Origin: an uncultured bacterium
GTDB lineage: Bacteria > Patescibacteriota > Minisyncoccia > UBA6257 > 2-01-FULL-56-20
Assembly: GCA_963718515.1 (NCBI GenBank)
Contig: OY970354.1
Location: forward strand, 302,363-366,362
Length of the DNA: 64,000 nucleotides
Direction of reading: 5' to 3'
Shown here: positions 7,610 to 55,065 of the stretch, piece by piece
Position numbering within the stretch: position 1 is the stretch's first letter
How the letters are laid out: every line of letters starts with the position of its first letter
The notes under the pieces: model-generated
What the model saw: the letters and a program-made list of their open reading frames with translations, nothing else
What the model was told of the DNA's origin: nothing
The model's database searches: none
Translations under genes and position numbers: made by a program

Positions 7610-7646
7610 TATAATAATATCAATCTATAACCAAGCTGTATCATCA

Positions 7647-10600
7647 ATGAAACGGACAAAGCAACTTTCCCTTATAGCTCTGTTTCTGGTAGCCCTGTTT
7701 CTGGGATTTTCTTATATTCCAAACATCTTCAGCCAAAAGAAAACATTTGCCGCTGGGACGCCCACCATCGTCCAGACCTGCACCGGCGGGAATTATGGCT
7801 CTACGGCAACCTGCACGCTGCCCAGTACGTTGAGCGCCAATACAACCTTGGTAGCAACAGGATATTCAAGCGGGTCAGGTGAAACACTCAGCATCTCAGG
7901 CTGTGGCCTCACCTGGACCAAAGTATTCAGTGACACGGCATCTGCCGATTTCACCTGGGACGTCTGGACTGCTCCTTCCACAGCTGGAACCTCCTGTACG
8001 GCAAGCCAGACGATCGGTGGGAGCCAGTACAACTTCATAAATATCGCAGAAGTATCAGGGGTCAACGGGCTGGATGCCATTCCTGTCGATGAACATTCGC
8101 CATTCTGCCAGACAGGATGCAGAAGCGGATCGTTGACTACAAATACGAATGGCGACTTGGTCCTATTCGTAGGATTCTTGCCGAGTTATTCATTAACCTA
8201 CAGCACCTTCAGTAACAGTTATAGCATTTATCAACAAAACTTTTTTAACAGTGGCGGTGGGAGCACCTCCACAAATGCTACTGCCTATATATTGCAGGGC
8301 ACTGCAGGCAACACTTCAACGACCTATAACCTGAGCGGTGCAACGAGCTACGCAGACAGCATCTTGATTCCGTTCAAATCCTCTGGGTCCGGTACCCCCG
8401 CCATCCCTCCCTCCGCTCCCACAAACCTCGCAGTCACCACTTCAACTCCCACCACCGTTTCCCTCTCCTGGACAGCTTCATCCGCAGGCACCTACTCCGT
8501 CGCGGGCTATGACATCTATCAGGGAAGCAACCAGGTAGGCATCACGTCAAGCACAACCTACACCGTAACAGGTCTCTCTCCTAGTACCGGATACACCTTC
8601 AGCGTCTATGCCTATGATTCCCAGAGCAATAGTTCCCCTCAATCAAATAGCGTCAATGCAACAACGCAGGCGCCTATCGTAGATACTACGCCTCCTTCTG
8701 TCCCCACAAACCTTTCTGCAAATGCAATCTCCTCAAGTCAGATCAACCTCTCCTGGACGGCATCAACAGATAATGTCGGCGTCACCGGCTACGATATATA
8801 TAGAGGAGGAGTCCAGATAGGCACCTCAGCAACCAACGGCTATTCAGATAGCGGTCTTGCTGCATCAACCCAATACACCTACACCGTCTCTGCCTATGAT
8901 GCTTCGGGGAATAACTCTGCGCAAAGCACCTCAGCTTCAGCCACGACCCAGGCGAAAAGCAGCGGGGGAGGCACTGGTCCCTGGTCTGGTGTCCTCACTC
9001 CGAGTCGTGCCATCAATTGGGGAAACGCCGGACTGCCAAGTACGCTTATTTACGGAACCGGAGGTAGTGCTTGCAACGGCTCAAGTGCGAATTGCACAGA
9101 AACAGTAGCGAATCCTTGGACTCCCCCCACGCGAACGCAGTGTGGCTCTACGATCAGTCCTTCAGGAAGCGCGGCTACCAATACATCCAATATTAATAAT
9201 GCCCTTGCCGCCTGTAATCCGGGCACATACGTCTTGCTTGGCCCTGGAACATTTACAGTCAACAGCAGTATTAACTTCTACACACAGAACGGCGTTACGC
9301 TACGAGGAAGTGGGCCGCAGTCAACTTCCATTACGCTTACGAATGCTGCAGACGTGCAGATGGGCGCCGGATATAGTTACGGACTTTGTGGATGGACTGG
9401 TGGTTACGCAGCTGGAGCAACCTCCATTACCTTGTCAAATTGCAGTAGCGCCCCTCATGTCGGCGTACTCACGACGCTCGCGCAATGCAATACCGGTTTT
9501 ACGGGGTGTGGCTACGCAAACATATCCGGCTCAAACGTCAGCCTCTATACTGCGGCGCCTGGATCGCTATTCTTGAATTCATGGGCAGGTACGCAAACCA
9601 TGTACTTTGGCTCTGGGACGACATGGCCGGGTTATCCGATTACTGCTGTTCAAAATGGGACCAGTCTTACGGTGAGCGGTGGAACCCCTCCCAGTACGTT
9701 TTTCTATATAGGAACTCCTGCAGATAATAATGGTATTTTCATTTGCGGAGGTGTCGATGGCACCTGCCAGCGTACCGACGAGGGCTCCGAGCCTACAGAT
9801 TTACAACAGCAGATTGTGATGATTACATCGGTCAGCGGAAGTGGGCCCTCCTATACGGCAACCATCAGTCCTGGTCTTTATATGCCGAATTGGAATACTT
9901 CTAATAATCCTAGCGCTAATTGGTCTACAGGAGCCCATACAGTGACAGCTCTTGGGAACGGTATCGAAGATATGACGATTTATAACGCCTATGACGGTGC
10001 GAATGAGAGTGTACAATTCAACAATTCTTATGGTTCTTGGGTGAAGGGTGTGCGTTTACTCGGCTCCGGAACTTACTATCCTCTCGTAATATCGGGCAGC
10101 AAGAATTCTTTGGTATCTAATAATTATATTTTCTCTGATCCGTTCGGCGATGGCCAATATCCTGGAGCCATGCAGGAGCAGCAGGATTCGGACGACCTCG
10201 TTCTCAATAACATTATGGTTTCGGGAACGTCCTGGGTGGGATTCGGGCTGATGTCGGGGGATGTAGCTGCTTATAATTACGGCCGAGATACTTTCACATC
10301 CTATCCGCTCGATATGTTTGAGCACGTCCCCGGCGACGTCTATCAACTCTATGAAGGAAATGAGGTCGGCACGCTTCAGGAAGACGCTACACATGGTACG
10401 CACGATTTGAATACCGCATTTCGTAACTATGTGCCGGGATATGATGTTCCTTATGTTGCGCAGGGGAATCCCGCAGGTATTACTTGGAATCCGTGGGACA
10501 GGTTCACCAACACGGTTGGTAATGTTATCGGCAATAGTGCAGGACTTTTGAATACGTACCAGAGTGAGACCCAGGCAGCTGGCGGTTACATTTTTTCCAT

Positions 10601-31396: not shown

Positions 31397-31468
31397 CGGA
31401 TCCGCCAGGAGTCGAACCCGGTTCGCCACGTGTTAAAGGTAGCATTTTAACCCCATAACTACGGGCCC
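31397..31468 (-). tRNA. atypical tRNA-like gene (anticodon loop ambiguous: UAA in a 7-nt loop with a C31-C39 mismatch, or a 9-nt loop CUUUAACAC); possibly a pseudo-tRNA
   Basis: The minus strand reads GGGCCCGTAGTTATGGGGTTAAAATGCTACCTTTAACACGTGGCGAACCGGGTTCGACTCCTGGCGGATCCG. The T arm is canonical (CCGGG-TTCGACT-CCTGG). The acceptor stem has a C4-A69 mismatch and a G3-U70 pair. Position 14 is T and position 37 is C. The variable loop is short, and CCA is not encoded. Confidence 0.5.
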
Positions 31469-42153: not shown

Positions 42154-45100
42154 ATGAAAAAACATCTCACCATTTTAGTTTTCGTTCTCGCTCTTGGGAT
42201 TTTCTCTCTCTCGCTCCCCAAAGCCTACGCCGCCATCACGCTTGTGGCCACGACCAGTGTCCAAAGCGGTACCACCCCCGCGATAAACACTAATGGCTCC
42301 TCGCTTATTGTCGTCGTCACCGCTTCTTATAGTGCGGCGGCGACCGTGACCGACAATATGGGCAATACCTGGTATGGATTGAACACGTATTATGCCTCTG
42401 ACAACAGCAGGTTTATAAAGATCTATTACGCTTACACTCCTCTTACCAGTCCGACCCAAACCTTCACCTGCGGGAGCAGTAATGGATTTGATTATCCGGC
42501 CTGTGTCGTGTCGGCATGGTCGGGAACAGCTACTACCTCCGCTGTCTTTGATACCCAGAACGGCTCTAGCAGTGCTAGCAATATAACTTCTTTGGGGATC
42601 GGATCCATTACCCCCGCTTCCACGAACGAACTGCTCATCGCAGGGTTCAGCGGTTCGACCTGTTTTACCGGAACCAATATGTCCATCAATTCCGGTTTTT
42701 CTATCTTTGGCACCGCAGGAGGCGCGTGTGGTAGTGGAGAGCTTGCGTACGGTGCCGACCTCTTGGATGCTAATACATCTGCGATTTCCCCAACATGGTC
42801 ATGGATGACTGCCAATGCCGGCAACGCAGCAACCATTGCCGCCTTCGCTCCCGCCTCAGGCGGCGGCTCCTCCACCTCGACCCCTGCCACCTCCACCCTC
42901 ACGCTCTCGAACGGGGGCAATGGCTCTGTCGTAAGTTCTCCCTCAGGCATCAATTGCGGAAGCACCTGCTCCATTGTTGTTAACAACGGCACCCAGGTGA
43001 CGCTGACTGCAACTCCTACCTCCGGCTACACCACAAGCTGGAGCAACTGCGGATCAACCACCAGTGGCAACACCTGTACCCTCACGATCAATGCGAATAG
43101 CACCGTAAGCGTCTCTTTTACTCCCCCTGACACCACTCCACCCTCCGTCCCTCCCAATCTTTCCGCAAATGCCATCTCTTCAAATCAAATCAACCTCTCT
43201 TGGACCGCCTCAACAGACAACGTAGGCGTCACCGGATACAAGATATATAGAGGAGGCACACAAATCGGCACCTCAGCCACTAATAGTTATACGGACTCAG
43301 GTCTCTCTGCATCCACCCTCTATACCTACACCGTATCCGCCTATGACGCCGCAGGCAACAACAGTGCCCAATCAACCTCTGCAAGTGCGACGACGGAGGC
43401 AAACAGTGGAAGCACCCCCACCGGTTCCTGGTCCAATATCCTCTCTCCCAATCGTGCCATCAACTGGTCAAGCGCGGGACTTCCCGCAACCTTCCCTGAC
43501 GGGGAGACCACGCCCAATCCCTGGACACCGCCTGCGAGGACGCAGTGTACTACGATCGCCCCGCTTGGTGGCGGCCAAGATGACGCTCCGCAAATTAAAA
43601 ACGCCGTCGCGGGATGTGCCGCGGGCACGTACGTCCTGCTCGACCCAGGAACGTTCACGATAGGATCCAGTTTATATCTTTCCCCGGGTTATACGTCCGG
43701 TCACAACAATGTCACAGTGCGCGGGAGTGGAGCGCAAGGCACTAAGTTACAGGTGGGTAGTGCAGGATCCATTAATATAGGCGCCGCGAGCGGCGGGGGA
43801 ACGGATACGCTTACATCAGGTTCCAACTATGCGCAGGGGAGCACTTCAGTGATTGTCACGGGCTCCCAACCGCCAGTAAACCAACCTGCCTGGTTCAGCC
43901 AGTGCGATACGGGTTACTCCGGATCGGGTTGCGCAACCGGATCAGCCGCAGATAATGGCGGCTTGTGGATCTGCGGTACGCAAACCATTTGCAGTAATCA
44001 AAGCGCGAATGGCAGCAACCATAACCATCAGCAACAAATTGTTCTTATAAAATCGGTCGTCAACAATGGCAATGGTACCTACGCCGTAACTTTCACCCCC
44101 GGCCTCTATATGCCGAACTGGTCGTATGCGCAAAGTCCCACCATGAGTTGGAACGATCCCACATATACCGCCATAGGTATGGGAATCGAGGACCTCACGG
44201 TTGATTTTACTTCCGGCAGTAACAACTACGGCTCTTTCGGATTTAACGAGGCGTACGCCTCGTGGGTCAAGGGGGTGCGATTCATCGGTCCGAGCGCCGG
44301 GAGTTGCTGCCAAATCACATTGGCCAATCTCAGCAAGTCTCTCTTCGCGAATAATTATACTTTTGATAATAATCCAGCAAATCTTTCCGGTGGAGGATTG
44401 ACGATCGCGTGGGGGAGCGACTCCGATGTGTTGATGATCAATAATCTCATGCAGGGCGGTGGCATCAACAGTATTGAGGGCACTGGCGACGATTCGGGAA
44501 ACGTTCTGGCCTACAATTATTCTCTCGACAATGTTACGAGCCAAGTGTATAACGGGGACGCCGAGCATTCGGCATCGCCGAACTTCATCCTGCGGGAAGG
44601 CAATGAGTTCGGAATGTCGGAGGACGATGCCACGTGGGGAACGCATGATTTCGATACTTGGTTTCGCAACTACTATTCCTGTGATGATCCGCCCTACTTG
44701 GGAGAGGCCGCCCCGCGCGGGATAGTTATCGATAACTACGCCCGGTTTGAAAACGCGATCGGTAACGCTCTTGGTGGTTCGAACGGATGCACGAGTTATC
44801 AAGGTTACGGCTCTTCGCCTTTTATTTTTGGATTTGGTGCCAGCGACCCGCTTGCACAAAGTACGGCCATGCGCTGGGGCAACTGCGATACAGTGACGGG
44901 AAGCTGCCGTTTCCAAAGTTCCGAAGTACCGGCATCGCTCAGCGGTAATGCGGCTCCCTTCGAAAACTCCGTTCCTTCCGTCGATACTTTACCCTGTTCG
45001 TTCTTTTTGCCCGGATATTCTTCACCGAATTGTACTCCTCATCCGGATGGCGGTACCGGCCTCAGCTGGTGGAAGATCTGCACCAATTGGACGACATTCC

Positions 45101-48009
45101 CCACCAATTGTGCCTCAAGCGAAACACAACCGTTTCCCGCGGTCGGTCCCGACGTATCGGGAGGGGCGCATGTGAATGGCCATGCGTATGATATTCCCGC
45201 GGCGATCGCATTCGGGAATCTTCCCATCGATCCCACGTATCAGAATTCATACAACATCACTGGCTCGAGTTGGTCGGGTGGGACGGAGACGCTGACCGTG
45301 AGCGGATTGCCCAGCGGCAGCGTTCACATCATGGGCGGTTTCCAACTCGCCGGAGTGTCCGCATCTTGTCTGCCAGCGAACGGCCTCTCATATACGGGAC
45401 GTCCCGATAATGAAGTATTGATGACGGGCTCTAATGTTGGGGTCGGGACCGTGAGCTACTCCCTTGCCTCGAACCCTGGCTCCTGCAGTGGAGGAACCTT
45501 CAAGTTTCCTGACATCCGCGAGTTCAACGAGGCGGTCTATGAGAATGATCCATCAAGCGGCGGAGGAGGCGACACCACCCCACCCACGATCTCGATATCT
45601 TCTCCTTCTAATGGTGCCACCGTCTCTTCGACCATCACCGTCTCTGGTATTGCGTCAGACAATGTTGCCGTCTCATCCGTATCCCTCTCAATTGACGGAG
45701 GGTCATATCAATCGGTATCCGGCACCACAAACTGGAATTACTCTCTGAATACCGCATCTCTCTCCAATGGCTCCCATACCCTGGTTGCAAAAGCCACCGA
45801 TTCATCAGGCAACACGGGTATCTCAGGAACCGTCACGATCACCGTGAACAACGCCTCCCCCGACGTGACCCCTCCCTCTGTCCCCACCGGCCTTGCCGCA
45901 TCAAACATCACGACCTCCACGATCTCTCTTGCATGGACCCAAAGCACCGATCCCACCGTGAATGGCCAGACGACCTCAGGCCTCGCAGGATACAGGATAT
46001 ATAGAGGGGGCGTGCAGGTGGGGACAAGCACCACAAATTCCTTCACGAACACTGGCCTTACCGCATCTACCACGTATTCCTACACCGTCTCCGCATATGA
46101 CAATGCAGGCAATGTCTCAAGCCAATCATCCGCCCTCCCAGTAAAGACGGGTTCTCCTTCGGATATGACGCCTCCCACGACCTCGATTACCTCTCCTCTC
46201 AACAACGCCACGGTATCAAGCACCATCACCGTTACTGCCTCTGCCTCAGACAACGTAGGCGTGGTCAAAGTTGAGTTCTACGTGGACAATGTTCTTCAAT
46301 CAAACGATACCGTATCTCCCTACACTTTCTCCCTCAATACGAACTCCCTTACGAATGGCACCCATTCCCTCATGACGAAAGCATATGATGCCGCAGGGAA
46401 TATCGGCAGCTCGGGCAATGTATCCGTTACGGTAGCCAACGTTCCCCAGACCCTGACCGCGTCTCTCCTTGCAACGCCTCTTACCGGCACTGCCCCCGTA
46501 ACTGTTTCGCTTACGGCATCAGCACTCGGCACCGCACAAGGTACCATCAATTACATCTTCTATTGCAACCGATCTGACACTGGCACCAATGTCACTTCTC
46601 CCGCAGACCTCACCGTGAATGCCACCAATCAGAATCCGTATGTCGCCACAAACCTGTGCAGTTACCAAACTGCAGGCACTTACACGACCAAGGTGATCGT
46701 CGAGCGGGGGAGTGCCCCGCCTGCAGAGGCGCAACAGGTCATCGTCGTCTCCGCGCCGATCACCTCGACATCGACCCCTCCGCTCATCTCGAGCGTCACC
46801 GTGAGCCAGATCACCGACACATCCGCACAGGTCGTCATTGTAACGACCGGGACATCTTCGCTTCAGCTCAACTACGGAACGAATACGAGTTATGGCATGA
46901 CCACGTCTGCCTCTCCCGAACTCACGACCACCTTCGTGAACCTCACGGGACTTACCCAAAGCACGATATACCACTTTGATGTCGCGGCAACCGTGCTTGG
47001 ATCAAGCACCCCCATCACGTCAGGAGACTTTTCCTTCACGACCCAGGCAACCCAGACGTCGGGCGGGGGAGGGGGTGGCACTTCTGGTGGCGGCGGTTCC
47101 GGCGGAGGTGGATCATCAGGTGGTGGTGGCGGTGGCGGTGGATACACCGCTCCCTTCACGGTCGGCATGGTCATCGTGACTTCCACTCCCACAACGGCAA
47201 AGATCATGGTCACGAACTCTCTCCCTGCCCTCACTCAGGTCTTCTATGGAACCTCTCTCTTCTATGGGTCTTCCACCCAGCAGTCTCCCATCCTTGCAAC
47301 TTCCTACTTCAATCTTGCTGGCCTCACTCCTGGCAAGACCTATGATGTAAAAGCCGTTTCTCTTGGTGCCGGTACCACGATCTCTTCCCCGAACCTCACC
47401 TTCATCCCTGGGGGAACGGTGAGCACCCCTCCCATCACAACGCCTCCTCCATCATCTGGCTCTTCTCTCCCCCTCTTCACAAGAAATCTCACGATCGGCT
47501 CCGTCGGCTCAGATGTAAAAGAATTGCAGATCCTTCTCAATCAGTGGGGATTCACAATCGCAAAGACAGGATCCGGTTCTCCCGGCAATGAATCCACCTA
47601 CTTTGGATCGCTTACCGCAAAAGCAGTCGCAGAGTATCAGGCGGCGAATGGCATCTCTCCCACCTCTGGATTCGTAGGATCCCTTACAAGGGCATCGCTC
47701 AACCAAAAGATCGGAGGGGGGACGACGACCCCTGTCGTGACGACACCATCTCCCACGACCACCAGTGGATCCATCACGACGAACCTCGCTCCCGGTGATG
47801 CAGGACCACAGGTAGACACCCTCCAAAGCATCCTTGTCACGGACGGTTACCTTGCTCCCCAGTATGTCACCGGATACTATGGATCCCTTACCGAGCAAGC
47901 AGTCGAAGCATTCCAGACTAAAGAAGGCATTGTCTCCTATGGGACGCCAAGCACGACTGGCTATGGTGCGGTGGGACCGAAGACGAGAGGGGAGCTCACC
48001 AGTTTATAG
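42154..48009 (+). CDS. giant surface protein (1951 aa), paralog of 7647-13430
   Basis: Continuous 5.9-kb ORF with a signal peptide (LTILVFVLALGIFSLSLPKAYA|A). It has the same domain order as the first giant protein: module, FN3, beta-helix-like core, Ig-like, an extra FN3, PKD-like, poly-Gly, and two PG-binding repeats. It lacks the He_PIG-like segment. Confidence 0.85.
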   Translation: MKKHLTILVFVLALGIFSLSLPKAYAAITLVATTSVQSGTTPAINTNGSSLIVVVTASYSAAATVTDNMGNTWYGLNTYYASDNSRFIKIYYAYTPLTSPTQTFTCGSSNGFDYPACVVSAWSGTATTSAVFDTQNGSSSASNITSLGIGSITPASTNELLIAGFSGSTCFTGTNMSINSGFSIFGTAGGACGSGELAYGADLLDANTSAISPTWSWMTANAGNAATIAAFAPASGGGSSTSTPATSTLTLSNGGNGSVVSSPSGINCGSTCSIVVNNGTQVTLTATPTSGYTTSWSNCGSTTSGNTCTLTINANSTVSVSFTPPDTTPPSVPPNLSANAISSNQINLSWTASTDNVGVTGYKIYRGGTQIGTSATNSYTDSGLSASTLYTYTVSAYDAAGNNSAQSTSASATTEANSGSTPTGSWSNILSPNRAINWSSAGLPATFPDGETTPNPWTPPARTQCTTIAPLGGGQDDAPQIKNAVAGCAAGTYVLLDPGTFTIGSSLYLSPGYTSGHNNVTVRGSGAQGTKLQVGSAGSINIGAASGGGTDTLTSGSNYAQGSTSVIVTGSQPPVNQPAWFSQCDTGYSGSGCATGSAADNGGLWICGTQTICSNQSANGSNHNHQQQIVLIKSVVNNGNGTYAVTFTPGLYMPNWSYAQSPTMSWNDPTYTAIGMGIEDLTVDFTSGSNNYGSFGFNEAYASWVKGVRFIGPSAGSCCQITLANLSKSLFANNYTFDNNPANLSGGGLTIAWGSDSDVLMINNLMQGGGINSIEGTGDDSGNVLAYNYSLDNVTSQVYNGDAEHSASPNFILREGNEFGMSEDDATWGTHDFDTWFRNYYSCDDPPYLGEAAPRGIVIDNYARFENAIGNALGGSNGCTSYQGYGSSPFIFGFGASDPLAQSTAMRWGNCDTVTGSCRFQSSEVPASLSGNAAPFENSVPSVDTLPCSFFLPGYSSPNCTPHPDGGTGLSWWKICTNWTTFPTNCASSETQPFPAVGPDVSGGAHVNGHAYDIPAAIAFGNLPIDPTYQNSYNITGSSWSGGTETLTVSGLPSGSVHIMGGFQLAGVSASCLPANGLSYTGRPDNEVLMTGSNVGVGTVSYSLASNPGSCSGGTFKFPDIREFNEAVYENDPSSGGGGDTTPPTISISSPSNGATVSSTITVSGIASDNVAVSSVSLSIDGGSYQSVSGTTNWNYSLNTASLSNGSHTLVAKATDSSGNTGISGTVTITVNNASPDVTPPSVPTGLAASNITTSTISLAWTQSTDPTVNGQTTSGLAGYRIYRGGVQVGTSTTNSFTNTGLTASTTYSYTVSAYDNAGNVSSQSSALPVKTGSPSDMTPPTTSITSPLNNATVSSTITVTASASDNVGVVKVEFYVDNVLQSNDTVSPYTFSLNTNSLTNGTHSLMTKAYDAAGNIGSSGNVSVTVANVPQTLTASLLATPLTGTAPVTVSLTASALGTAQGTINYIFYCNRSDTGTNVTSPADLTVNATNQNPYVATNLCSYQTAGTYTTKVIVERGSAPPAEAQQVIVVSAPITSTSTPPLISSVTVSQITDTSAQVVIVTTGTSSLQLNYGTNTSYGMTTSASPELTTTFVNLTGLTQSTIYHFDVAATVLGSSTPITSGDFSFTTQATQTSGGGGGGTSGGGGSGGGGSSGGGGGGGGYTAPFTVGMVIVTSTPTTAKIMVTNSLPALTQVFYGTSLFYGSSTQQSPILATSYFNLAGLTPGKTYDVKAVSLGAGTTISSPNLTFIPGGTVSTPPITTPPPSSGSSLPLFTRNLTIGSVGSDVKELQILLNQWGFTIAKTGSGSPGNESTYFGSLTAKAVAEYQAANGISPTSGFVGSLTRASLNQKIGGGTTTPVVTTPSPTTTSGSITTNLAPGDAGPQVDTLQSILVTDGYLAPQYVTGYYGSLTEQAVEAFQTKEGIVSYGTPSTTGYGAVGPKTRGELTSL
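47059..47143 (+). repeat. GGN-rich low-complexity tract encoding SGGGGGTSGGGGSGGGGSSGGGGGGGG
   Basis: Seen directly in the sequence. It is the counterpart of 12501-12585. Confidence 0.9.
47801..47996 (+). repeat. 196-nt tract with 1 mismatch to 13222-13417
   Basis: See 13222-13417. Confidence 0.9.
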
Positions 48010-48250
48010 AGGAAGAGAAAGGGCCGCTATAATAGCGACCCTCCGAATTTCTTAGTTCGTTATATTTCTCGCGAAGTTCCAGATATCGCTTTCGTTCCAA
48101 GAAGAATTGTTTTCCGAGCTCACAGCCGGAATGTTCATCGCGGGCATCATCCTTCATCTTGGTGCTGATGAATCTGATGAGCACCGAATCCTGCCTGCCC
48201 GTCGCCCTCACTTCAATGGTATCTCCGAGGAGCAGGGAACAATTGGCCAA
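47996..48250 (-). CDS. hypothetical small protein (84 aa from a TTG start)
   Basis: ORF with no ATG start. The weak ...LLLGDTIEVRATG...VLIRFI pattern is reminiscent of swapped-hairpin/AbrB- or CsrA-like beta strands. It abuts the left end of the island. Confidence 0.25.
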   Translation of the reverse strand: MANCSLLLGDTIEVRATGRQDSVLIRFISTKMKDDARDEHSGCELGKQFFLERKRYLELREKYNELRNSEGRYYSGPFSSSINW

Positions 48251-48344
48251 TTCAGGATTTTTCAGGCTGGCCGGGCTGACTTCAATCGATTGCTCGGGGA
48301 TCTCCGCTTGATTTAGTACTTGAATTAGCTAGCTTGTCCTCTTT

Positions 48345-48610
48345 TGCTCATCTGGCGGACGTAGCACGAACGTATTTTATGGCAAATTCCTGATCATTTT
48401 ACCCCTTCAAATACCCCTTCAATTGCCCTGAGTCAATTTGAAGGGGTAGCAAGTCCAGATCGGCCTGAAAACACTGGCCTTTCTGACCCTCACCTCCCAA
48501 AATTCAAAGTCCTACTTCACTCCGCTAGACCCCTTCCGAAATGGTGTGCTCAGCCCCTCGGTCTGCTGACCTCGGGGCTTCGCGTATGGCGCGCCCAAAT
48601 TCCTCCCCCA
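48345..48610 (+). repeat. IR1-L: 266-bp inverted repeat, apparently identical to the reverse complement of 51776-52041
   Basis: Compared block by block and no mismatch was seen. The outer end is tgctcatctggcgg and the inner end is ...aattcctccccca. Confidence 0.9.
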
Positions 48611-48824
48611 ACCCCTCCTTTGGGGCGCGCAGAGGTGGTAGTTCCACGTTTCGCGACCCTATTCCTGTCTGGTGGGAAAATCCTACGTCTTGTGTGTCTG
48701 ACCCTCCAGAAAGCGGTTTCTTGCCCTTGCCCCAGCCCTCCCATTGCGCGGGCAAGAGGCGATCTAGCTCCCTCAAAATTCGGTTTACCAAAAGGGTCTT
48801 TTTCTGATAACATAAAAGGTAATC

Positions 48825-50576
48825 ATGGCCATAACTCCATCACGGCAAACCGTCGAACAACTTCTAAATATTGGCAACGCCCGCTTTTTGGTTCCATCCT
48901 ACCAGCGCGGTTTTGATTGGGGTAAAGACGAAGCAGATGACTTATGGAATGACGTTATCTCATCCGATCAGGGAATATACTTAGGCAATATTGTCCTCGA
49001 TGTCGAAAATATGAATCGCGGCGAGATATCTATCGTCGATGGCCAACAGAGGATAACAACTATTTGTTTATTACTTATTGCGTGTCGTGCGAGGGCAATC
49101 GCCATAAAAGAAAACAAGCTCGCTAGTAAGATTACGGAAAAGTTAACTTTTAGCGATTCTACTACTGGTGAAATGACGGGAGCAAGGTTGGGCGCATCAA
49201 TGGCAGTGCGTGATATTTTTGAGTACATCATCAGGGACGATTGGAAAGGAGACTTTCCTACGAAGTTGGGAAAGAAATTCGTTAAGCGGCAGATTAATAA
49301 GATCAAACCCGTATATGAATTATTCCGTGAGCGGGTATCGTCGCTTAAGAAGCTTGAAGATATATCAACTTTGTTGAAAAAGCTTTACGGATCGTTTGTT
49401 ATTAAGATAGATGTCGATGGCGATCTTGATGTATTCGATCTTTTTGAAAGAGCGAATGCGCGTGGCCTGGAACTTAATGCAGCCGATCTTTTAAAGGCAG
49501 ATCTCTTCTCCGCCGAAATTGAGGGTATCGAGGAAACGTGGGATGAAATAGTGGAAAACGCAGATACCACAATGATGAGAATGTTGAAATATTACCTGGT
49601 CGCCAGGAAGGGAGCCGTCCAAAAGAAAGATATTTTCAAAAATCTCCAAAGGCAATCTTCGGAACTCAAGCCAGATGTTTTTGTAAAAGACCTCAGTGAT
49701 TTTTCTGCCTTTTATGCCATCTTGCGGGAGGGACGAGAAGAAGATCTAAGAAGTTATTTCGAAGCGAATGGGTGTTTGGGAATCTCTAGAAATCAACATT
49801 ATTGCCACGATATTTATTCAAGTATCGAAGCCTTAAGGCTTTTCCGTGTTACGCAACCTTACCCGATTATTTATTCGGCCGTAAAAGCATATCAGGAAAA
49901 ATATGGGGATAACGCTGAAATGGCGAAGTTGCTTAGGTCTCTTATAGAAACCTTCGAGAAATACCATTTCGTTAACAATGTCATTTGTGAGCGTGTGGGT
50001 AACGAAATCGAGAAAACATATATGGACTTCGCTCCGAAATTTAACAATGCAAAGGATTTTAAAAAGAATTGCAGCGAACTTATTAAGATCCTTCAAGACA
50101 AGAAGGCTAGTTATGAAGAGTTTGAGCCTAATTTCAAAGAACTTTCATATAGCACCTCTGCCGACCTACCACTTATCAGTTACGTTATTGACCGCATAAA
50201 TAACTTTGATAGAGTAGGTGGACAAAAAACACAGCTATTTTTCTTGGACAGAAAAGGATTTAGGCGAAGTTTTAATGTTGAGCATTTTTATCCAGACTCT
50301 AAACGGGGAGAATTGCCTGATCCTGATATAGCTGATAATATCGGAAACTTGCTAATTATTAGCTTACATACAAACTCGAAGCTGCAAGCTAAAATGCCGC
50401 TTGAAAAAATAGAGATACTAAAGAATAAAGAAAGTTTTGCTAACTTACCGCATGTTAAAACTTTTATCGAGGAATTTGAGAATCACATTAAGACTAAGGG
50501 TTGGGGATCGGACGAGATAGCCATGAGAGCTGTCAAATTAGCTCACGGCGCTTACTACAAAGTTTGGCATTTTTAG
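48825..50576 (+). CDS. DUF262 + DUF1524 (GmrSD-like) nuclease-family protein
   Basis: N-terminus has FLVPSYQRGFDWGKDEADDLWNDV and IVDGQQRITT (DUF262/ParB-like DGQQR motif). C-terminus has FNVEHFYP...IGNLLIISLHTNSKL (His-Me/DUF1524-like). Confidence 0.75.
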   Translation: MAITPSRQTVEQLLNIGNARFLVPSYQRGFDWGKDEADDLWNDVISSDQGIYLGNIVLDVENMNRGEISIVDGQQRITTICLLLIACRARAIAIKENKLASKITEKLTFSDSTTGEMTGARLGASMAVRDIFEYIIRDDWKGDFPTKLGKKFVKRQINKIKPVYELFRERVSSLKKLEDISTLLKKLYGSFVIKIDVDGDLDVFDLFERANARGLELNAADLLKADLFSAEIEGIEETWDEIVENADTTMMRMLKYYLVARKGAVQKKDIFKNLQRQSSELKPDVFVKDLSDFSAFYAILREGREEDLRSYFEANGCLGISRNQHYCHDIYSSIEALRLFRVTQPYPIIYSAVKAYQEKYGDNAEMAKLLRSLIETFEKYHFVNNVICERVGNEIEKTYMDFAPKFNNAKDFKKNCSELIKILQDKKASYEEFEPNFKELSYSTSADLPLISYVIDRINNFDRVGGQKTQLFFLDRKGFRRSFNVEHFYPDSKRGELPDPDIADNIGNLLIISLHTNSKLQAKMPLEKIEILKNKESFANLPHVKTFIEEFENHIKTKGWGSDEIAMRAVKLAHGAYYKVWHF

Positions 50577-50650
50577 ATAATATCCGCAGATGAAGTATTC
50601 CGCTTATGTTAGGAAAGGTCGGAGAATAAAAAATAGTAGCAAATTATATT

Positions 50651-50875
50651 ATGAGTATTGACCCAAGAGAACGCGAACGCTTAATGCGCGATCTCAAAAA
50701 TTTACAAGCAACACGAGACCAATTTGTTCGCTCAAGGGATAGGGAAAGAGACCTAGCAAAACATTATGGTAGCGATCACCCTACGGCAAAGATTGCCGAG
50801 AGGCAGGTGAAGGATTATGAGGAAAAAATCTCAAGGTTGGACAGAGAAATTTCTGCCATCACATCCCGTCTATAA
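50651..50875 (+). CDS. hypothetical 74-aa charged coiled-coil protein
   Basis: R/E/D-rich heptad-like sequence. No known motif. Confidence 0.5.
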   Translation: MSIDPRERERLMRDLKNLQATRDQFVRSRDRERDLAKHYGSDHPTAKIAERQVKDYEEKISRLDREISAITSRL

Positions 50876-50883
50876 TTCTTTTT

Positions 50884-51732
50884 ATGGCCGGATCAAATGA
50901 CAAAAAGAGCAACCTCGGACTATTCGCCGCCGTCTTTGCGGCGATTTTCGGCACAAGTTATGGGATTTTTTCGATTGGTAAGAACTTGAAAAATCGTGGC
51001 GCGGCGATGGAACAAGCCATCGGCGAGGCAGAGAAACTCTTTCAAAAGGGAATGACCGAAGATGAGATATTTAATGCCTTCTGCGCCGATGCCGCGCGGC
51101 AGACTAAGAGAAGCGTGAATGATGGCGAGATAAGAGACAAGGTGAGAAGTGTAGTGTCGGAAGCGAAGAAGCGATTTGAAGCGGGTGGCGCGGTAGTTTC
51201 TATAAGCGGCTCATTATCCTCGCCGAGCGACCTTGACGGCTCTATCAAAACTATAATGCTTGCCCTTCAGAACGCCCTTCAAAAATCGCAACCGACTTTG
51301 AAATTTGATGATCTTTATGCGAAGGCAAAAGAAGCCGAAGCGAAGAACGACATGAGTGATTTTCAGGTATTCATTCAGAATCAGGAATATGATACGACGG
51401 CCGTTTGGAAGATATGGATGGACGTTGAGCAGAAGCTCAATCAGACGACGTATTTTTTCGATAGTTCAGAGCCAGAGAACGTGCGAAGCAAGCGAGAGGA
51501 GATGGCGAAGCTCAACAGCTTGCCGAATACCTTTAAGAATCTCCTTGTAACGCGCGGCCACGTCCTGCGCCATGTACGAACGATGTATAACGGGAAGAAC
51601 AAGCGCGAGGAAACAAAGAAACATGAGGCCGATGAACTCAAGGTGCTTATGAAGCTGTTTCAGAACGACATTGACCGCGTAACGGCGGAGATGGATGTCT
51701 TTAACAAGACGATGGAGAAGCTTCAAACTTAA
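50884..51732 (+). CDS. hypothetical 282-aa protein with an N-terminal TM helix and helical/coiled-coil body
   Basis: LGLFAAVFAAIFGTSYGIFSIG is a TM segment. The remainder is charged and helical. No known motif. Confidence 0.55.
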   Translation: MAGSNDKKSNLGLFAAVFAAIFGTSYGIFSIGKNLKNRGAAMEQAIGEAEKLFQKGMTEDEIFNAFCADAARQTKRSVNDGEIRDKVRSVVSEAKKRFEAGGAVVSISGSLSSPSDLDGSIKTIMLALQNALQKSQPTLKFDDLYAKAKEAEAKNDMSDFQVFIQNQEYDTTAVWKIWMDVEQKLNQTTYFFDSSEPENVRSKREEMAKLNSLPNTFKNLLVTRGHVLRHVRTMYNGKNKREETKKHEADELKVLMKLFQNDIDRVTAEMDVFNKTMEKLQT

Positions 51733-51775
51733 TCAGAGAAAAAATTTCACGGCCATGCGGCCATGAGCTATTTTG

Positions 51776-52041
51776 TGGGGGAGGAATTTGGGCGCGCCAT
51801 ACGCGAAGCCCCGAGGTCAGCAGACCGAGGGGCTGAGCACACCATTTCGGAAGGGGTCTAGCGGAGTGAAGTAGGACTTTGAATTTTGGGAGGTGAGGGT
51901 CAGAAAGGCCAGTGTTTTCAGGCCGATCTGGACTTGCTACCCCTTCAAATTGACTCAGGGCAATTGAAGGGGTATTTGAAGGGGTAAAATGATCAGGAAT
52001 TTGCCATAAAATACGTTCGTGCTACGTCCGCCAGATGAGCA
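51776..52041 (-). repeat. IR1-R: inverted copy of 48345-48610
   Basis: See IR1-L. Confidence 0.9.
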
Positions 52042-52139
52042 GCTATAAAACTTAGGTTGGTTTCAGAAAAATTCACGCGCGCTTCGCGGAGCGAAGCGTA
52101 AGGTGGGGTGGGGGTAAATTCGATACGACGGTTGTTAAG
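52037..52139 (+). repeat. IR2-L: 103-bp inverted copy of the tRNA-Asn 3' end plus downstream flank (54841-54943), 4 mismatches
   Basis: The reverse complement aligns with 54841-54943. Mismatches are at 54846, 54858, 54879 and 54882. It overlaps IR1-R by the 5 nt GAGCA. Confidence 0.85.
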
Positions 52140-52175
52140 AAAGAGATTCGAGCCGAAGATTTTTTGGAGGGAGGT

Positions 52176-52760
52176 CTAACCAACTTGCCTAATCCAATCC
52201 CGAATGTACATGCCGACTCTCTCGATATCCGTTGGAGCAAGTTCGCCGCCGTGCATGATGATGTTGCGCGACTTCTCAAGCGTTGTGATAATTTGTTTAG
52301 CCCACTCAATATTGTCGATGTGTATCTGAAAGAATTTCCAATTTTGCTCACTGCCCATAATTGAGATGAGATCACCAAAATCAGTGTAGTAGATTGGAGA
52401 TGCGCCACGTGGGGTAAGCCATCTGACTCCACTTTCTTCCTTTTTTCTATTTTCTGCCTTTTGTCGGATCTTAGAATTTACAGATTTTGTCCACCAGTCC
52501 GCTTTCTTTTCCTCTAGAAGTTTTTTCTCAATAAATTCCCGCACGGTATTTTCAAACGCACAAATTGCGGTATAGACAACCGCCATTCTGCGTGATTTCG
52601 CTACTAAATCTTCATCTAGCAAAGGGATACCAAGTCGTTTTGCCGCCTCTGCTTCCCACTTTTCGGTAAAGTTTCTCTTGCCGAGATGCCCTGCTTTTTC
52701 TAGGGCAATTTCGGTCAATAAACCACGGAGACCGAACGAATAGAGTAGGTCATCTTTCAT
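52176..52760 (-). CDS. HEPN-domain protein (Swt1-like HEPN, tentative)
   Basis: The C-terminal RNIIMHGG fits the HEPN R-x4-6-H motif. An upstream FENTVREF segment is also present. 194 aa. Confidence 0.6.
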   Translation of the reverse strand: MKDDLLYSFGLRGLLTEIALEKAGHLGKRNFTEKWEAEAAKRLGIPLLDEDLVAKSRRMAVVYTAICAFENTVREFIEKKLLEEKKADWWTKSVNSKIRQKAENRKKEESGVRWLTPRGASPIYYTDFGDLISIMGSEQNWKFFQIHIDNIEWAKQIITTLEKSRNIIMHGGELAPTDIERVGMYIRDWIRQVG

Positions 52761-52763
52761 TGT

Positions 52764-53405
52764 TTACAATAAATGTCGGCGCAAGCTCTTGAAAATAGCG
52801 TCATAAACCGACTCGTCGCGCGACTCAGGAAGGTGGATTTGAATATTGTAATGGAACTGGGCACTCGATGGTTTTTTGGATTCTAATTCCGCCTCTTCCT
52901 CTTTTTCTTTCAATGACTGAGGTGGTTCTGGCTCATTCTTTTTTTGCTCAACTTTTGGTTTCGTTATTGGTGTTTTCTTTGCAGTCCAATCGGCATATTC
53001 AACAAGTGCTTTGAAAGTGCTTGCCATCTTTGTAAGTACTGACTCTGAATACTTACCCTGCGTTAGGACGCGCAATTTATTTTTGACCTCTGTTGCGGAG
53101 AGTTCGTTTGCCTTTGTGTTTACGGAAAATAAATCGCCGTATGCTTCTTCTACTGCTTCGGCAAGGACTTTCTTCGATTCTGACTGATCGAGGAAACGAA
53201 AATACCTCTCTGTGGGAACTGCGTTAGCGTCCAAGAAACCGAGCCCCTTGAGCACTGGAATATACAAACGATCATTTGTACTCTTAAATCCGAGTCCTTC
53301 TATAAACCTTTGAGTAAAGGCGTTGGGGGCTTTTGCGGTAATAAGGCTGTCGAAGAATGATTTTACATTCTTGACGCTCACGAGATATGAAGGGATTAGA
53401 GCCAT
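52764..53405 (-). CDS. partner protein of the HEPN gene (DUF5343-like, tentative)
   Basis: 213 aa, with its stop 3 nt before the HEPN start. N-terminal ...FTQRFIEGLGFKSTNDRLYIPVLKGLGFLD..AVPTERY and C-terminal ...IQIHLPESRDESVYDAIFKSLRRHL resemble DUF5343, recalled from memory. Confidence 0.45.
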   Translation of the reverse strand: MALIPSYLVSVKNVKSFFDSLITAKAPNAFTQRFIEGLGFKSTNDRLYIPVLKGLGFLDANAVPTERYFRFLDQSESKKVLAEAVEEAYGDLFSVNTKANELSATEVKNKLRVLTQGKYSESVLTKMASTFKALVEYADWTAKKTPITKPKVEQKKNEPEPPQSLKEKEEEAELESKKPSSAQFHYNIQIHLPESRDESVYDAIFKSLRRHLL

Positions 53406-53472
53406 GTTAGGTAAAAGCTATCTTTAGTTCCATTATACCCCTAAGGATGCGGCAAAACAAGTCAAACTGCGG

Positions 53473-53478
53473 TAAAAT
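53473..53478 (+). promoter_or_regulatory. -10 box (TAAAAT) 6 nt upstream of the recombinase ATG
   Basis: The sequence is gcggTAAAATacaactATG. Confidence 0.35.
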
Positions 53479-53484
53479 ACAACT

Positions 53485-55065
53485 ATGCGCTACTTCCTCT
53501 ATGCCCGCAAAAGCACCGACGTTGAAGACAAGCAAGTTTTGAGCATCGAAGCCCAACTTGTAGAACTCCGCGAACTCGCCAGAGACGAGCATATTGAGAT
53601 AGCCGAAGAACTCGTCGAGAAAAAATCCGCCAAGATGCCTGGCCGCCCCGTCTTCAACGAAATGCTACGTCGAATAGCTAAAGGCGAGGCTAAAGGCATC
53701 ATCTGTTGGAAACTAGATCGTCTAGCCCGCAATCCCGTGGACGGCGGCCAGGTCAGCTGGATGCTCCAGCAGGGAATGATTGAGCATATCCTCATGCCAG
53801 ATAAGAGCTACCGCCCGACCGATAACGTTCTTATGATGTCCGTCGAATTCGGCATGGCCAACCAGTTTATTCGCGATCTCAGTTCTAATACGAGTAGAGG
53901 ACTGCGACAAAAAGCGCGACACGGGGATTTTCCTGGCACTGCTCCCGTCGGGTATCTGAATGATGTCCGAGCTAAAACGATTGTCGTTGATCGCCGCAAG
54001 TCTAAAGCTATTAAAGCCGCCTTTGAATTGTATGCGCTAGGCAAATCCCGTCTTGAAGACATATCAAAATTTCTTTTCGAGCAGGGCGTCAAAAGCACGA
54101 ACGGCAACCCGCTCCATAAGGACAGGGTTCGCTTCATTCTAGCCAATCCGTTTTATTACGGCGTATTCATGTATAAGGGCGAAACCTACAAAGGCCGCCA
54201 TACTCCGCTTATCGAGAAGCGTCTTTGGGACAAGGTTCAGCAGGTGCTCGTTGATCGCGGCCATCCGCAGAAAACGACGAGTGATCCGAAACCGTTTTGC
54301 GGTTTGCTTCATTGCGGCGAGTGCGGCCGCATGATCACCGCCGAGGTTCAGAAAGGACACACCTATTATCGTTGTACCAAGAAAGGAACGGCTTGTTCCC
54401 AGCCATACGTCCGCGAGGAGGTTTTGACTGCCGATCTATCCAATATACTTTCAGAGTTCGCCATGCCCGAAGCTATCGCATCAGAGCTTACGAAAAAGAA
54501 CGAAGAAGACGAGGCTGTATCCACTCAAAAAGCGTCGGCGTTCGCTCAAGAGTTGCGTACAAAGGTTCAGGACTTTTCCCGCAACCTCGACCGACTTACC
54601 GATCTCTATGTAGCTCAGGATATTGACCGAGAGGACTACCTTTCCCGCCGTCGCAAGCTCCTTTCGGAAAAGCGGTCAGTCGAGGAGCAGATAGCCCGTC
54701 TTGAGCGAAACGCCTCCGTATGGCTCGAACCAATGCGAGAATGGATAAAAGACGCGTCATTGCTTACCTTAGTGGCAACCAATGACGACTTAAATGCCAA
54801 AAAGGCCTCCCTACAAAAAATCTTCGGCTCGAACATACTTCTTAAAAACCGTCGTATTGAATTTACCCCCACCCCACCATATGCTTCGCTCCGCGAAGCG
54901 CGCGTGAATTTTTCTGAAACCAACCTAAGTTTTATAGCTGCTCCGCGACCAGGACTCGAACCTGGAACCATCGCCTTAACAGGGCGCCGCTCTACCATTG
55001 AGCTATCGCGGAATACGAATAGTATTCTAACAGACGGGGAAATATTTTCAATAGCCGCTTTTTAA
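53485..55065 (+). CDS. large serine recombinase (resolvase/invertase N-domain + recombinase domain + zinc ribbon + coiled coil); the ORF runs through IR2-R and antisense across tRNA-Asn
   Basis: YARKSTDVEDKQVLSIEAQ (catalytic Ser context), ICWKLDRLARN, CGLLHCGECGRMITAEVQKGHTYYRCTKK (zinc ribbon). The last ~70 codons are encoded by IR2-R and the antisense tRNA, so the true C-terminus is uncertain. Confidence 0.8.
   Translation: MRYFLYARKSTDVEDKQVLSIEAQLVELRELARDEHIEIAEELVEKKSAKMPGRPVFNEMLRRIAKGEAKGIICWKLDRLARNPVDGGQVSWMLQQGMIEHILMPDKSYRPTDNVLMMSVEFGMANQFIRDLSSNTSRGLRQKARHGDFPGTAPVGYLNDVRAKTIVVDRRKSKAIKAAFELYALGKSRLEDISKFLFEQGVKSTNGNPLHKDRVRFILANPFYYGVFMYKGETYKGRHTPLIEKRLWDKVQQVLVDRGHPQKTTSDPKPFCGLLHCGECGRMITAEVQKGHTYYRCTKKGTACSQPYVREEVLTADLSNILSEFAMPEAIASELTKKNEEDEAVSTQKASAFAQELRTKVQDFSRNLDRLTDLYVAQDIDREDYLSRRRKLLSEKRSVEEQIARLERNASVWLEPMREWIKDASLLTLVATNDDLNAKKASLQKIFGSNILLKNRRIEFTPTPPYASLREARVNFSETNLSFIAAPRPGLEPGTIALTGRRSTIELSRNTNSILTDGEIFSIAAF
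54841..54943 (-). repeat. IR2-R: tRNA-Asn 3' end (3 nt) plus 100-bp downstream flank, repeated in inverted orientation at 52037-52139
   Basis: See IR2-L. It contains the hairpin gcttcgc-tcc-gcgaagc. Confidence 0.85.
54941..55012 (-). tRNA. tRNA-Asn (GUU)
   Basis: The minus strand reads TCCGCGATAGCTCAATGGTAGAGCGGCGCCCTGTTAAGGCGATGGTTCCAGGTTCGAGTCCTGGTCGCGGAG. The acceptor stem is perfect, the anticodon loop is CTGTTAA, the discriminator is G73, and CCA is not encoded. Confidence 0.9.

Follow-up and report, generated by a model that had tools for sequence, protein, structure and literature searches.

Perfect 266-bp inverted repeats as probable ends of a defence-type cassette in a tRNA-Asn-anchored island of a candidate phyla radiation bacterium

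In a 64,000-nt stretch of contig OY970354.1 (hereafter, the window), from an uncultured bacterium of the candidate phyla radiation (CPR; Patescibacteria), two arms of a long inverted repeat (repeat A) enclose a three-gene cassette whose lead gene encodes a predicted GmrSD-type enzyme. Between this cassette and a tRNA-Asn gene, a large serine recombinase (LSR) gene lies in a second inverted-repeat box (repeat B). We consider it probable, at roughly 60%, that a cargo cassette without a recombinase of its own has the 266-bp arms as its terminal repeats, that this cassette is one module of a tRNA-Asn-anchored modular island, and that its ends serve as LSR half-sites. The layout of a tRNA, an inverted-repeat-boxed LSR, and inverted-repeat-boxed cargo occurs, complete or partial, in many of 51 related loci. 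CPR bacteria have tiny genomes with few recognised mobile elements, and their acquisition and exchange of defence genes are poorly understood.

RESULTS AND DISCUSSION

Perfect inverted repeats enclose a three-gene cassette

Coordinates are positions in the window, and L-numbers denote related loci fetched from CPR genomes and metagenomes. A repeat search of the window placed the left arm of repeat A (distal, "leader-side") at 48345–48610 on the plus strand and the right arm (tRNA-proximal, "trailer-side") at 51776–52041 on the minus strand. As the original prediction had stated, the arms are perfect inverted repeats, being 100% complementary over 266 nt, with 3165 nt enclosed; the identity breaks off abruptly at both arm ends, and a 50-mer from the arm is found in the window at these two places and nowhere else, against 0 occurrences expected by chance. 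Both hairpins quoted earlier for the arm are present, TACCCCTTCAATTG-CCCTGAGT-CAATTTGAAGGGGTA at 48412–48448 and AGCCCCTC...GGGGCT at 48552–48579. Inspection of the left arm showed an outer part of about 55 nt, TGCTCATCT-N-CGAAC-N-TATTTTA, which resembles a tRNA 3′ end; ACCCCTTCAA repeats, two direct and one inverted, at 48400–48448; and an inner, near-invariant core terminating in ...GGCGCGCCCAAATTCCTCCCCCA. The description of the arms as GC-rich did not survive: their GC content is 52.6%, compared with a window mean of 52.1%, and exceeds only that of the enclosed cargo (43%).

Repeat A is non-coding, with indels between homologues that are not multiples of three, and the 87–88-aa open reading frames (ORFs) at 48525–48813, considered as a possible coding arm and leader, were rejected on account of indels of 1, 2, and 11 nt between homologues. 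The individual arms contain no terminal inverted repeats. This agrees with the earlier view that the arms are not a pair of miniature inverted-repeat transposable elements (MITEs); nor are they the ends of an insertion sequence. The accompanying statement that there is no transposase is correct for the cassette, none of whose three ORFs is a recombinase, but misleading for the locus, where the LSR gene starts about 1.4 kb to the right.

In the Logan assembly of run ERR11630394, a 3213-nt contig is identical to window 48581–51793 and breaks inside both A arms. Related long-read metagenome-assembled genomes (MAGs), including the complete chromosome OY970175.1, show the same repeat-bounded architecture. 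These independent sources argue that repeat A is not an assembly artefact. A second Logan contig equals window 52078–54912, so repeat B too is independent of the assembler used for the window.

A boxed large serine recombinase lies between the cassette and tRNA-Asn

The locus runs in the order tRNA-Asn, box B (the LSR gene and a gene pair, PDC-M34), box A (the GmrSD cassette), 335 nt of distal flank, and the end of the gene for a 1951-aa surface protein. Repeat B (52037–52177 and 54803–54943) is 141 nt long and 93% identical, with the outer 61 nt identical. Arm B1 (52037–52177, plus strand) overlaps the right arm of repeat A by 5 nt (GAGCA) and repeats, in inverted form, the 3′ end of the LSR gene together with the hairpin downstream of it, while the last 4 nt of arm B2 (54803–54943, minus strand) are the 3′ end of the tRNA-Asn (GTT) gene (54940–55012, minus strand), at which the island begins.

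The LSR (53485–55065, plus strand; 526 aa) has Resolvase, Recombinase, and Zn_ribbon_recom domains and the catalytic YARKS motif; its best NCBIfam matches are CcrB, XisF, and CcrA, with CcrC also matched, all well below the cut-off. The conserved C-terminal motif of the LSR (SLQKIFGSN..LKNRRIEF) is encoded in arm B2, and the B arms in general encode this motif, SLQKIFGSNLFLKNRRVEF and variants. The LSR ORF meets its first stop only after crossing arm B2 and, in antisense, tRNA-Asn; since there is no stop before the module boundary, the extreme C-terminus of the protein depends on the abutting sequence. The same read-through was seen in L003, L004, L035, and L055, and the L039 ORF instead stops inside the cassette arm. 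Considered for coding constraint, the two B arms of the window differ at five synonymous and four non-synonymous codons, and L058 shows decay.

The arm family in other CPR genomes

A 23-mer of the arm retrieved 14 loci from species-representative genomes, all of them CPR MAGs (Minisyncoccia/Paceibacterota), and a 25-mer of the invariant arm core retrieved 37 metagenome loci, giving 51 related loci altogether. Viral contigs scanned with two arm k-mers gave no matches. The arms are nearly always paired head-to-head, 2–3.7 kb apart, around different cargo, as a mobilisable or exchangeable cassette predicts. The layout of the window recurs in L003, L004, L007, L010/L005, L013, L027, and L035, and an LSR homologue adjoins or lies within the arms in at least 13 loci. 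Genomes carry one or two loci each, with a single pair in a complete 0.9-Mb chromosome.

The arm has three parts: a variable outer part of about 55 nt; one or two units of ACCCC-NNCAN repeats (two direct and one inverted), whose variable part changes in all three repeats together; and an inner part of about 110 nt, which hardly varies even where the LSRs of two loci have only 35–42% identity. The inner junctions of one pair are never alike. On the leader side, the arm passes into AACCCCTCCTTTGGGGCGCGC, completing a hairpin that spans the boundary, and in most cases into a further conserved sequence of about 165 nt; on the trailer side it gives way to an A-run, a GC hairpin, and a T-run. All members have the repeat boundary, ...CCTCCCCCA, at the same position to within 1–2 nt, and it falls in a hairpin loop.

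Variants of this architecture were also noticed. Two tandem units of about 128 nt are possible in the arms of several loci (L013 7200–7594, L014, L015, L022, L028, L038, and L046). L014 carries a 300-nt perfect direct duplication (4369–4668 and 6147–6446) spanning the end of a HEPN gene, the B arm, and the outer A arm; evidently, the repeats drive local rearrangements. L002 has at 587–740 a 154-nt cargo-less palindrome, 60 nt downstream of tRNA-Pro and preceded by CCGCAG, which consists of the arm outer part and four symmetric ACCCCTTCAA repeats and may represent a minimal version of the element or a decayed one.

Arms are homogenised within each element, and the cassette has one orientation

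Seven arm pairs resolved in long contigs were compared. Six of the seven differ by 0–3 mismatches within the pair, whereas left arms of different loci are 72–89% identical; the L003 pair has an additional 11-nt loop indel and the L004 pair three differences. The exception is L013, in which the outer part is 89% identical and the right arm has an extra unit. These comparisons support concerted evolution, presumably by gene conversion, that keeps the arms of each element nearly identical while they diverge between genomes. The perfect identity had originally been attributed to recent duplication, homogenisation, or inversion; this pattern favours homogenisation, and inversion finds no support in the orientations described next.

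For orientation, the 700 nt outside each arm were clustered and flank types assigned. A flank containing a B arm, an LSR gene, or a tRNA was always on the trailer-type arm (window, L003, L004, L007, L010, L013, L014, L017, L027, L041, L046, and L050), with 0 exceptions on the leader-type arm among these at least 12 loci. Cassette orientation is thus fixed across relatives, the trailer end facing the LSR/tRNA side. The cassette had been called invertible or mobilisable; it is found in one orientation only, and the recurrence of the arm with different cargo speaks for the second of the two terms, or for exchange. The LSR module, by comparison, lies in both orientations, reading toward the cassette in L039, L028, and L059 and toward the tRNA in 12 other loci; the L039 LSR is 88% identical to that of L003 over the LSR, yet its orientation is opposite.

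The boxed layout recurs around LSR homologues

Homologues of the LSR number more than 6,000 at E ≤ 1e−20, and where a source is named nearly all are from CPR. Four homologues (57–69% identity), sampled by protein similarity and chosen only for their long contigs, gave the complete layout in three cases and a partial layout in one. In L055, tRNA-Asn is followed by a 116-nt repeat (100% identical) boxing the LSR, a helix-turn-helix protein, a methylase, and a GmrSD_N-HNH protein, and then by a second box in which a repeat of about 290 nt (99–100%) surrounds four cargo genes. L058 has tRNA-Asn, a 96–131-nt repeat boxing the LSR and a DUF3800 protein, and a 161-nt repeat (98%) boxing oxidase genes, and L057 has a 141-nt repeat (99%) boxing the LSR, followed by a pair of arms of the window type. 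In L059 the LSR is followed by a pair of repeats of at least 55 nt, 6 kb apart, that bound a cargo cassette.

At L057 9490–9700, a tRNA 3′ half with an apparent intron interrupting the anticodon loop was recognised by eye, and ARAGORN reported no tRNA there. This split tRNA fits the group I introns that a recent report describes in tRNA-Asn genes of Patescibacteria (PMC13011429). In L055 (1–335) and L015 (4313–6055), the leader side has a second, divergent LSR (about 25–30% identical), whose ORF runs toward the arm and across the junction, so a cassette can have recombinase genes on both sides. The distal flank of the window was considered as native tRNA-downstream sequence and rejected, having no homology to the post-tRNA region of L014. 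A similarity between L055 and L014 was traced to the 3′ terminus of another, divergent recombinase gene.

Junctions between modules suggest a half-site mechanism

The window has three junctions, written here with the tRNA-like side first: tRNA...GGAGCA|GCTATAAAAC between tRNA and arm B2, A_R...ATGAGCA|GCTATAAAAC between the right arm of repeat A and arm B1, and A_L...ATGAGCA|AAAGAGGAC between the left arm and the flank. At every module boundary, a tRNA-like end, which is either a real tRNA or the A outer end (TGCTCATCT-N-TCGAAC), is joined through the same short core to a recombinase-module end, which a B arm supplies with its outer end. This core reads GAGCA in the window, CCGCAG at tRNA-Ser loci, and GAGCCC in L058, and GC is the sole palindromic dinucleotide common to all three; successive repeats overlap by 4–8 nt. 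In three loci, 12 nt separate TCGAAC from GCTC in tRNA-Asn, compared with 16 nt at the A outer ends. In the A118 family of LSRs, half-sites are about 25 bp long and the same motif is displaced between attP and attB (PMC3783163). The idea that the A outer end is a genuine tRNA 3′ half was rejected by eye, because its spacing does not suit a T-arm plus acceptor.

In the mechanism that we propose, the module ends would act as LSR half-sites, with crossover at the palindromic GC inside the core. A palindromic crossover would be needed if box B is an LSR insertion with ordinary attL and attR sites, since both of its junctions share the core read from the tRNA-like side. A palindromic central dinucleotide abolishes polarity, as known from work on Bxb1 and phiC31, and the two orientations of the LSR module fit such a dinucleotide. 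The LSR module would insert, in either orientation, at a site made up of the tRNA end and the tRNA-mimicking end of the cassette. The outer ends of the cassette would be attB-like tRNA mimics and the cassette a docking partner and not an insert, a role that fits its fixed orientation. Neighbouring recombinases could carry, excise, or exchange the cassette in trans, as CcrAB moves cassettes resembling the staphylococcal cassette chromosome (SCC) that lack ccr. In this reading the near-invariant core of the arm and the adjoining leader would have a further function of their own at the level of the cassette, as regulatory RNA or as DNA that binds protein. The model predicts the cassette-circle junction ...CCAGATGAGCTCATCTGG..., the LSR-module circle junction ...TTTTATAGCTGCAGCTATAAAA..., and the empty site tRNA-Asn...GGAGCTCATCTGG. 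The low GC content of the cassette (43%, compared with 52%) also counts for a mobile cassette.

Several points weigh against this interpretation. All the fetched DNA contained no excised circle, no empty site, and no alternative junction, and mobility is only what we infer. The 100–290-bp perfect repeats exceed the approximately 50 bp that an LSR needs, and site recognition does not account for their length. The motif shift is 4 nt here, compared with the 5 bp described for A118, and the B outer ends are unlike the tRNA-like ends. An orientation-blind insertion of the cassette would be expected to give both orientations, whereas one is found, and the model must consequently treat the cassette as the target side. 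The ACCCC-NNCAN repeats, in addition, do not covary with LSR clade, so at least part of the arm serves something besides this LSR.

A wider generalisation is offered as a tentative proposal, which we hold to be possible but doubtful: a new class of modular CPR island would consist of recombinase modules, with identical inverted ends that encode the LSR C-terminus and serve as attP-like half-sites, and cassettes, with identical inverted ends that imitate a tRNA 3′ end and serve as attB-like half-sites. Given a palindromic GC crossover, docking would be possible for any pair of recombinase module and cassette, in either orientation, and recombinases at the flanks could free cassettes as circles, as a natural counterpart of cassette exchange; the arm core would be a further RNA or protein-binding DNA element shared by all cassettes.

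Alternative explanations

A regulatory explanation would make the arm core and leader a structured RNA or control region and the inverted far copy an insulator or decoy, with cargo swapped by ordinary homologous recombination across the conserved flanks and mobility incidental. The near-invariance of the inner arm (about 110 nt) and leader (about 165 nt) between loci with LSRs only 35–42% identical suits this idea, as do a repeat boundary at the same base in all members and within a hairpin loop, the three-way covariation of the ACCCC-NNCAN repeats, and the mosaic interior revealed by the window and L013, which differ only downstream of GmrSD. A search of Rfam 15 at gathering and permissive thresholds, however, assigned the arm and leader to no curated RNA family; only tRNAs reached the gathering score, and the best E-value over 48250–48900 was 1.3, to unrelated miRNA models. 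RNAalifold gave a plausible multi-hairpin fold with compensatory changes in one hairpin, but covariation is confined to 2 of the 58 predicted pairs, and folding is better on the reverse strand. No sigma-70-like promoter was found in the arm, and only the trailer hairpin scores as a terminator. Regulation would also leave the tRNA-like outer ends and the exact abutment of the LSR box unexplained, and we regard it as rather unlikely in this form. A separate cassette-level role of the arm core and leader, as regulatory RNA or protein-binding DNA, is nevertheless the main rival or complement to mobility.

The invertible cassette of the original prediction, taken as a phase-variable switch in which homologous or recombinase-catalysed recombination between the arms flips the 3.2-kb segment and alters expression, draws on a serine recombinase close beside perfect 266-bp inverted repeats, on concerted evolution of the arms such as frequent inter-arm recombination would give, and on the presence of the neighbouring LSR segment both ways round. 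The cassette itself, with its trailer end toward the LSR/tRNA in at least 12 related loci and 0 exceptions, argues the opposite; moreover, leader and terminator both lie inside the segment, so that a flip would not obviously alter expression, and we think such a switch improbable. Movement as a non-autonomous terminal inverted repeat (TIR) transposon, that is, a cargo-carrying MITE mobilised by a DDE or other transposase encoded elsewhere, appears very unlikely: although the long terminal inverted repeats start with TG and the L002 palindrome beside tRNA-Pro looks MITE-like, there are no target-site duplications, the cassette flanks TGTCCTCTTT and GCTATAAAAC are unrelated, each genome has one or two loci whose identifiable trailer-side flanks are always LSR/tRNA sites, and no transposase was found in any cargo examined. 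As for a collapsed or mirrored repeat created during assembly, perfect identity is what a collapsed repeat would give, and the short-read contigs of relatives do break in the arms; however, a true repeat would also break Logan contigs at arm boundaries, and the independent assemblies, the complete long-read chromosome among them, agree and contain arm differences that the assembler resolved (the 11-nt indel in L003 and the three differences in L004), making this explanation extremely unlikely.

Cassette genes, cargo diversity, and neighbouring features

Comparison of loci delimits a conserved non-coding leader (48611–48775, plus strand) found only at this end of the cassette, the first approximately 20 nt of which complete a hairpin (48588–48630) spanning the arm boundary. 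Cargo gene 1 (48825–50576, plus strand) encodes a 583-aa protein with GmrSD_N and GmrSD_C domains (PF03235, 1.6e−32; PF07510, 1.2e−08; PADLOC HEC-06/Orf5, HEC-06 1e−56). An N-terminal DUF262 and a C-terminal DUF1524 in one protein, the combination by which GmrSD is recognised, are both present, and the product is a predicted GmrSD type IV restriction enzyme. Cargo genes 2 (50651–50875; 74 aa) and 3 (50884–51732; 282 aa), both on the plus strand, have no family match; gene 2 recurs after a GmrSD-sized ORF in L036, where gene 3 recurs as well. The earlier assignment of the cargo to defence thus stands for the lead gene and finds no family match to build on in the other two. A trailer (51745–51775, no strand assigned), a GC-rich hairpin between an A-run and a T-run that resembles a bidirectional terminator, lies directly inside the right arm of repeat A.

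Cargo varies widely between loci. L036 has the GmrSD, 74-aa, and 282-aa set of the window plus a PD-(D/E)XK protein; L007 has an N4/N6 methylase, an MvaI/BcnI endonuclease, and a DUF262 protein; L003 has a MORC-like ATPase fused to an SDH protease; L037 has Mrr_cat; L032 and L034 have Trypsin_2, with or without DUF5677; and L058 has a multicopper oxidase (Cu-oxidase) set. Other cargo includes zinc-ribbon proteins and many proteins without a family match. The closest relative of the window, L013 (GmrSD and an AIG2-like protein), has arms, leader, and GmrSD in common with it (92.6% nucleotide identity), and since the two diverge only downstream of GmrSD, cassettes are mosaics. A leader piece of about 70 nt (leader positions ~100–170) is repeated between cargo genes at L030 1753–1819, L034 1331–1397, L019 4235–4285, and L044 2350–2457, as if it were a reusable regulatory module.

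Box B carries, besides the LSR gene, a PADLOC candidate defence pair, PDC-M34, which comprises PDC-M34B (HEPN; 52176–52760, minus strand) and PDC-M34A (DUF5343; 52764–53405, minus strand). The pair corresponds to DUF5343 and Swt1-like HEPN genes (PADLOC E-values 6e−80 and 8e−74), and L014 has a HEPN-like gene at the equivalent place, directly after tRNA-Asn.

Elsewhere in the window there are two giant ORFs, 7596–13430 (1944 aa) and 42154–48009 (1951 aa; Big_7, fn3, Big_13, and peptidoglycan-binding domains), the latter being the surface protein gene. Weak similarity to the C-terminal end of the 1951-aa protein was seen about 190–270 nt outside the distal arm in L031, L040, and L044, and also in L019 and L029. 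A stretch at 31397–31468 (minus strand), which lies inside a 292-aa ORF, reaches 32.9 bits as a tRNA in Rfam, above the gathering score of 29, yet is absent from the ARAGORN predictions; the match may be spurious, or the tRNA unusual.

Significance and comparison with known systems

The locus points to a very common route of defence-gene acquisition in CPR, with an LSR family of more than 6,000 members and three of four sampled loci fully boxed. Its unusual features are the 100–290-bp perfect inverted repeats of each module and the placement of the 3′ end of the recombinase gene inside a repeat. If the half-site logic is true, the island would be a natural cassette-exchange system, would provide many tRNA-targeting serine integrases whose sites are defined, and would make variable, largely defence, cargo of uncultured bacteria traceable by a simple sequence signature. 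The arm core, being nearly invariant, would add a conserved non-coding element that is new. Full-text literature searches turned up no account of LSR modules or cassettes boxed by inverted repeats in CPR bacteria, which is weak evidence of absence; this kind of island is widespread in CPR and apparently undescribed.

Several known classes can be set aside. In a composite transposon the arms would not be expected to be 266 nt long, non-coding, and without a transposase or terminal repeats of their own. Integron cassettes have a single direct attC and are moved by the tyrosine integrase IntI, whereas here there are two inverted arms per cassette and the only recombinase is of the serine type. 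A MITE or TIR transposon was rejected for its lack of target-site duplication and of many dispersed copies. The serine-invertase switches (Hin, Gin, Cin, and Pin) resemble the locus in that inverted repeats enclose a unique segment and a serine recombinase lies in or beside it, and the LSR module here lies both ways round; long repeats also have a precedent, the C segment of phage P1 having inverted repeats of about 0.6 kb. Those switches, however, use small invertases, 26–34-bp sites, and an enhancer, and they change a coding or promoter junction, whereas the present locus has a 526-aa LSR. A Hin/Gin/Cin-type switch was rejected: the segment is bounded by inverted repeats, but the cassette occurs in one orientation, there is no small invertase, and leader and terminator are internal. 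PinQ/PinR have been found in defence islands, according to a recent report (PMC12529663).

Among elements moved by LSRs, Tn4451 (TnpX) and Tn5397 (TndX) make no target duplication and recombine at a site created when their ends are joined. Their end repeats are short and imperfect, their crossover is a non-palindromic GA, and they are not known to stack at tRNA ends or to include separate recombinase-less cassettes with long perfect repeats. Tycheposons are bounded by direct partial-tRNA repeats. They are hypervariable tRNA-adjacent cargo islands of streamlined genomes, some with serine recombinases, and long inverted-repeat boxes are not described there (10.1101/2020.12.28.424599). In engineered cassette exchange, such as the phiC31 and Bxb1 landing pads, inverted identical att sites block deletion and permit exchange. 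The island shares with this design a cargo placed between two identical inverted recombinase sites; the design is artificial, whereas exchange is here only a hypothesis, and to our knowledge no natural counterpart of inverted-att cassette exchange has been established.

The closest likeness is to SCC and SCCmec. Short direct repeats bound SCC cassettes, and the inverted repeats next to these are likewise short. In common with them, the island has an LSR, whose best, sub-threshold NCBIfam matches are Ccr proteins; a single conserved housekeeping gene whose 3′ end is the insertion point; modules in tandem, not all of which have a recombinase (also in L003, L004, L055, and L058); and cargo enriched in anti-phage functions. 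Tandem SCC-like defence cassettes are mobilised by CcrAB (Hossain et al. 2024, PMC11470126). The differences lie in the 100–290-bp near-perfect inverted repeats that bound the modules, the tRNA target, and the recombinase C-terminus encoded in the repeat; no direct repeats, whether att or target-site duplications, were found at the island or cassette ends, and the core GAGCA is inverted at successive junctions. By analogy, then, the island appears to work most like an SCC-type composite, one with long inverted repeats in place of the short direct repeats that bound SCC.

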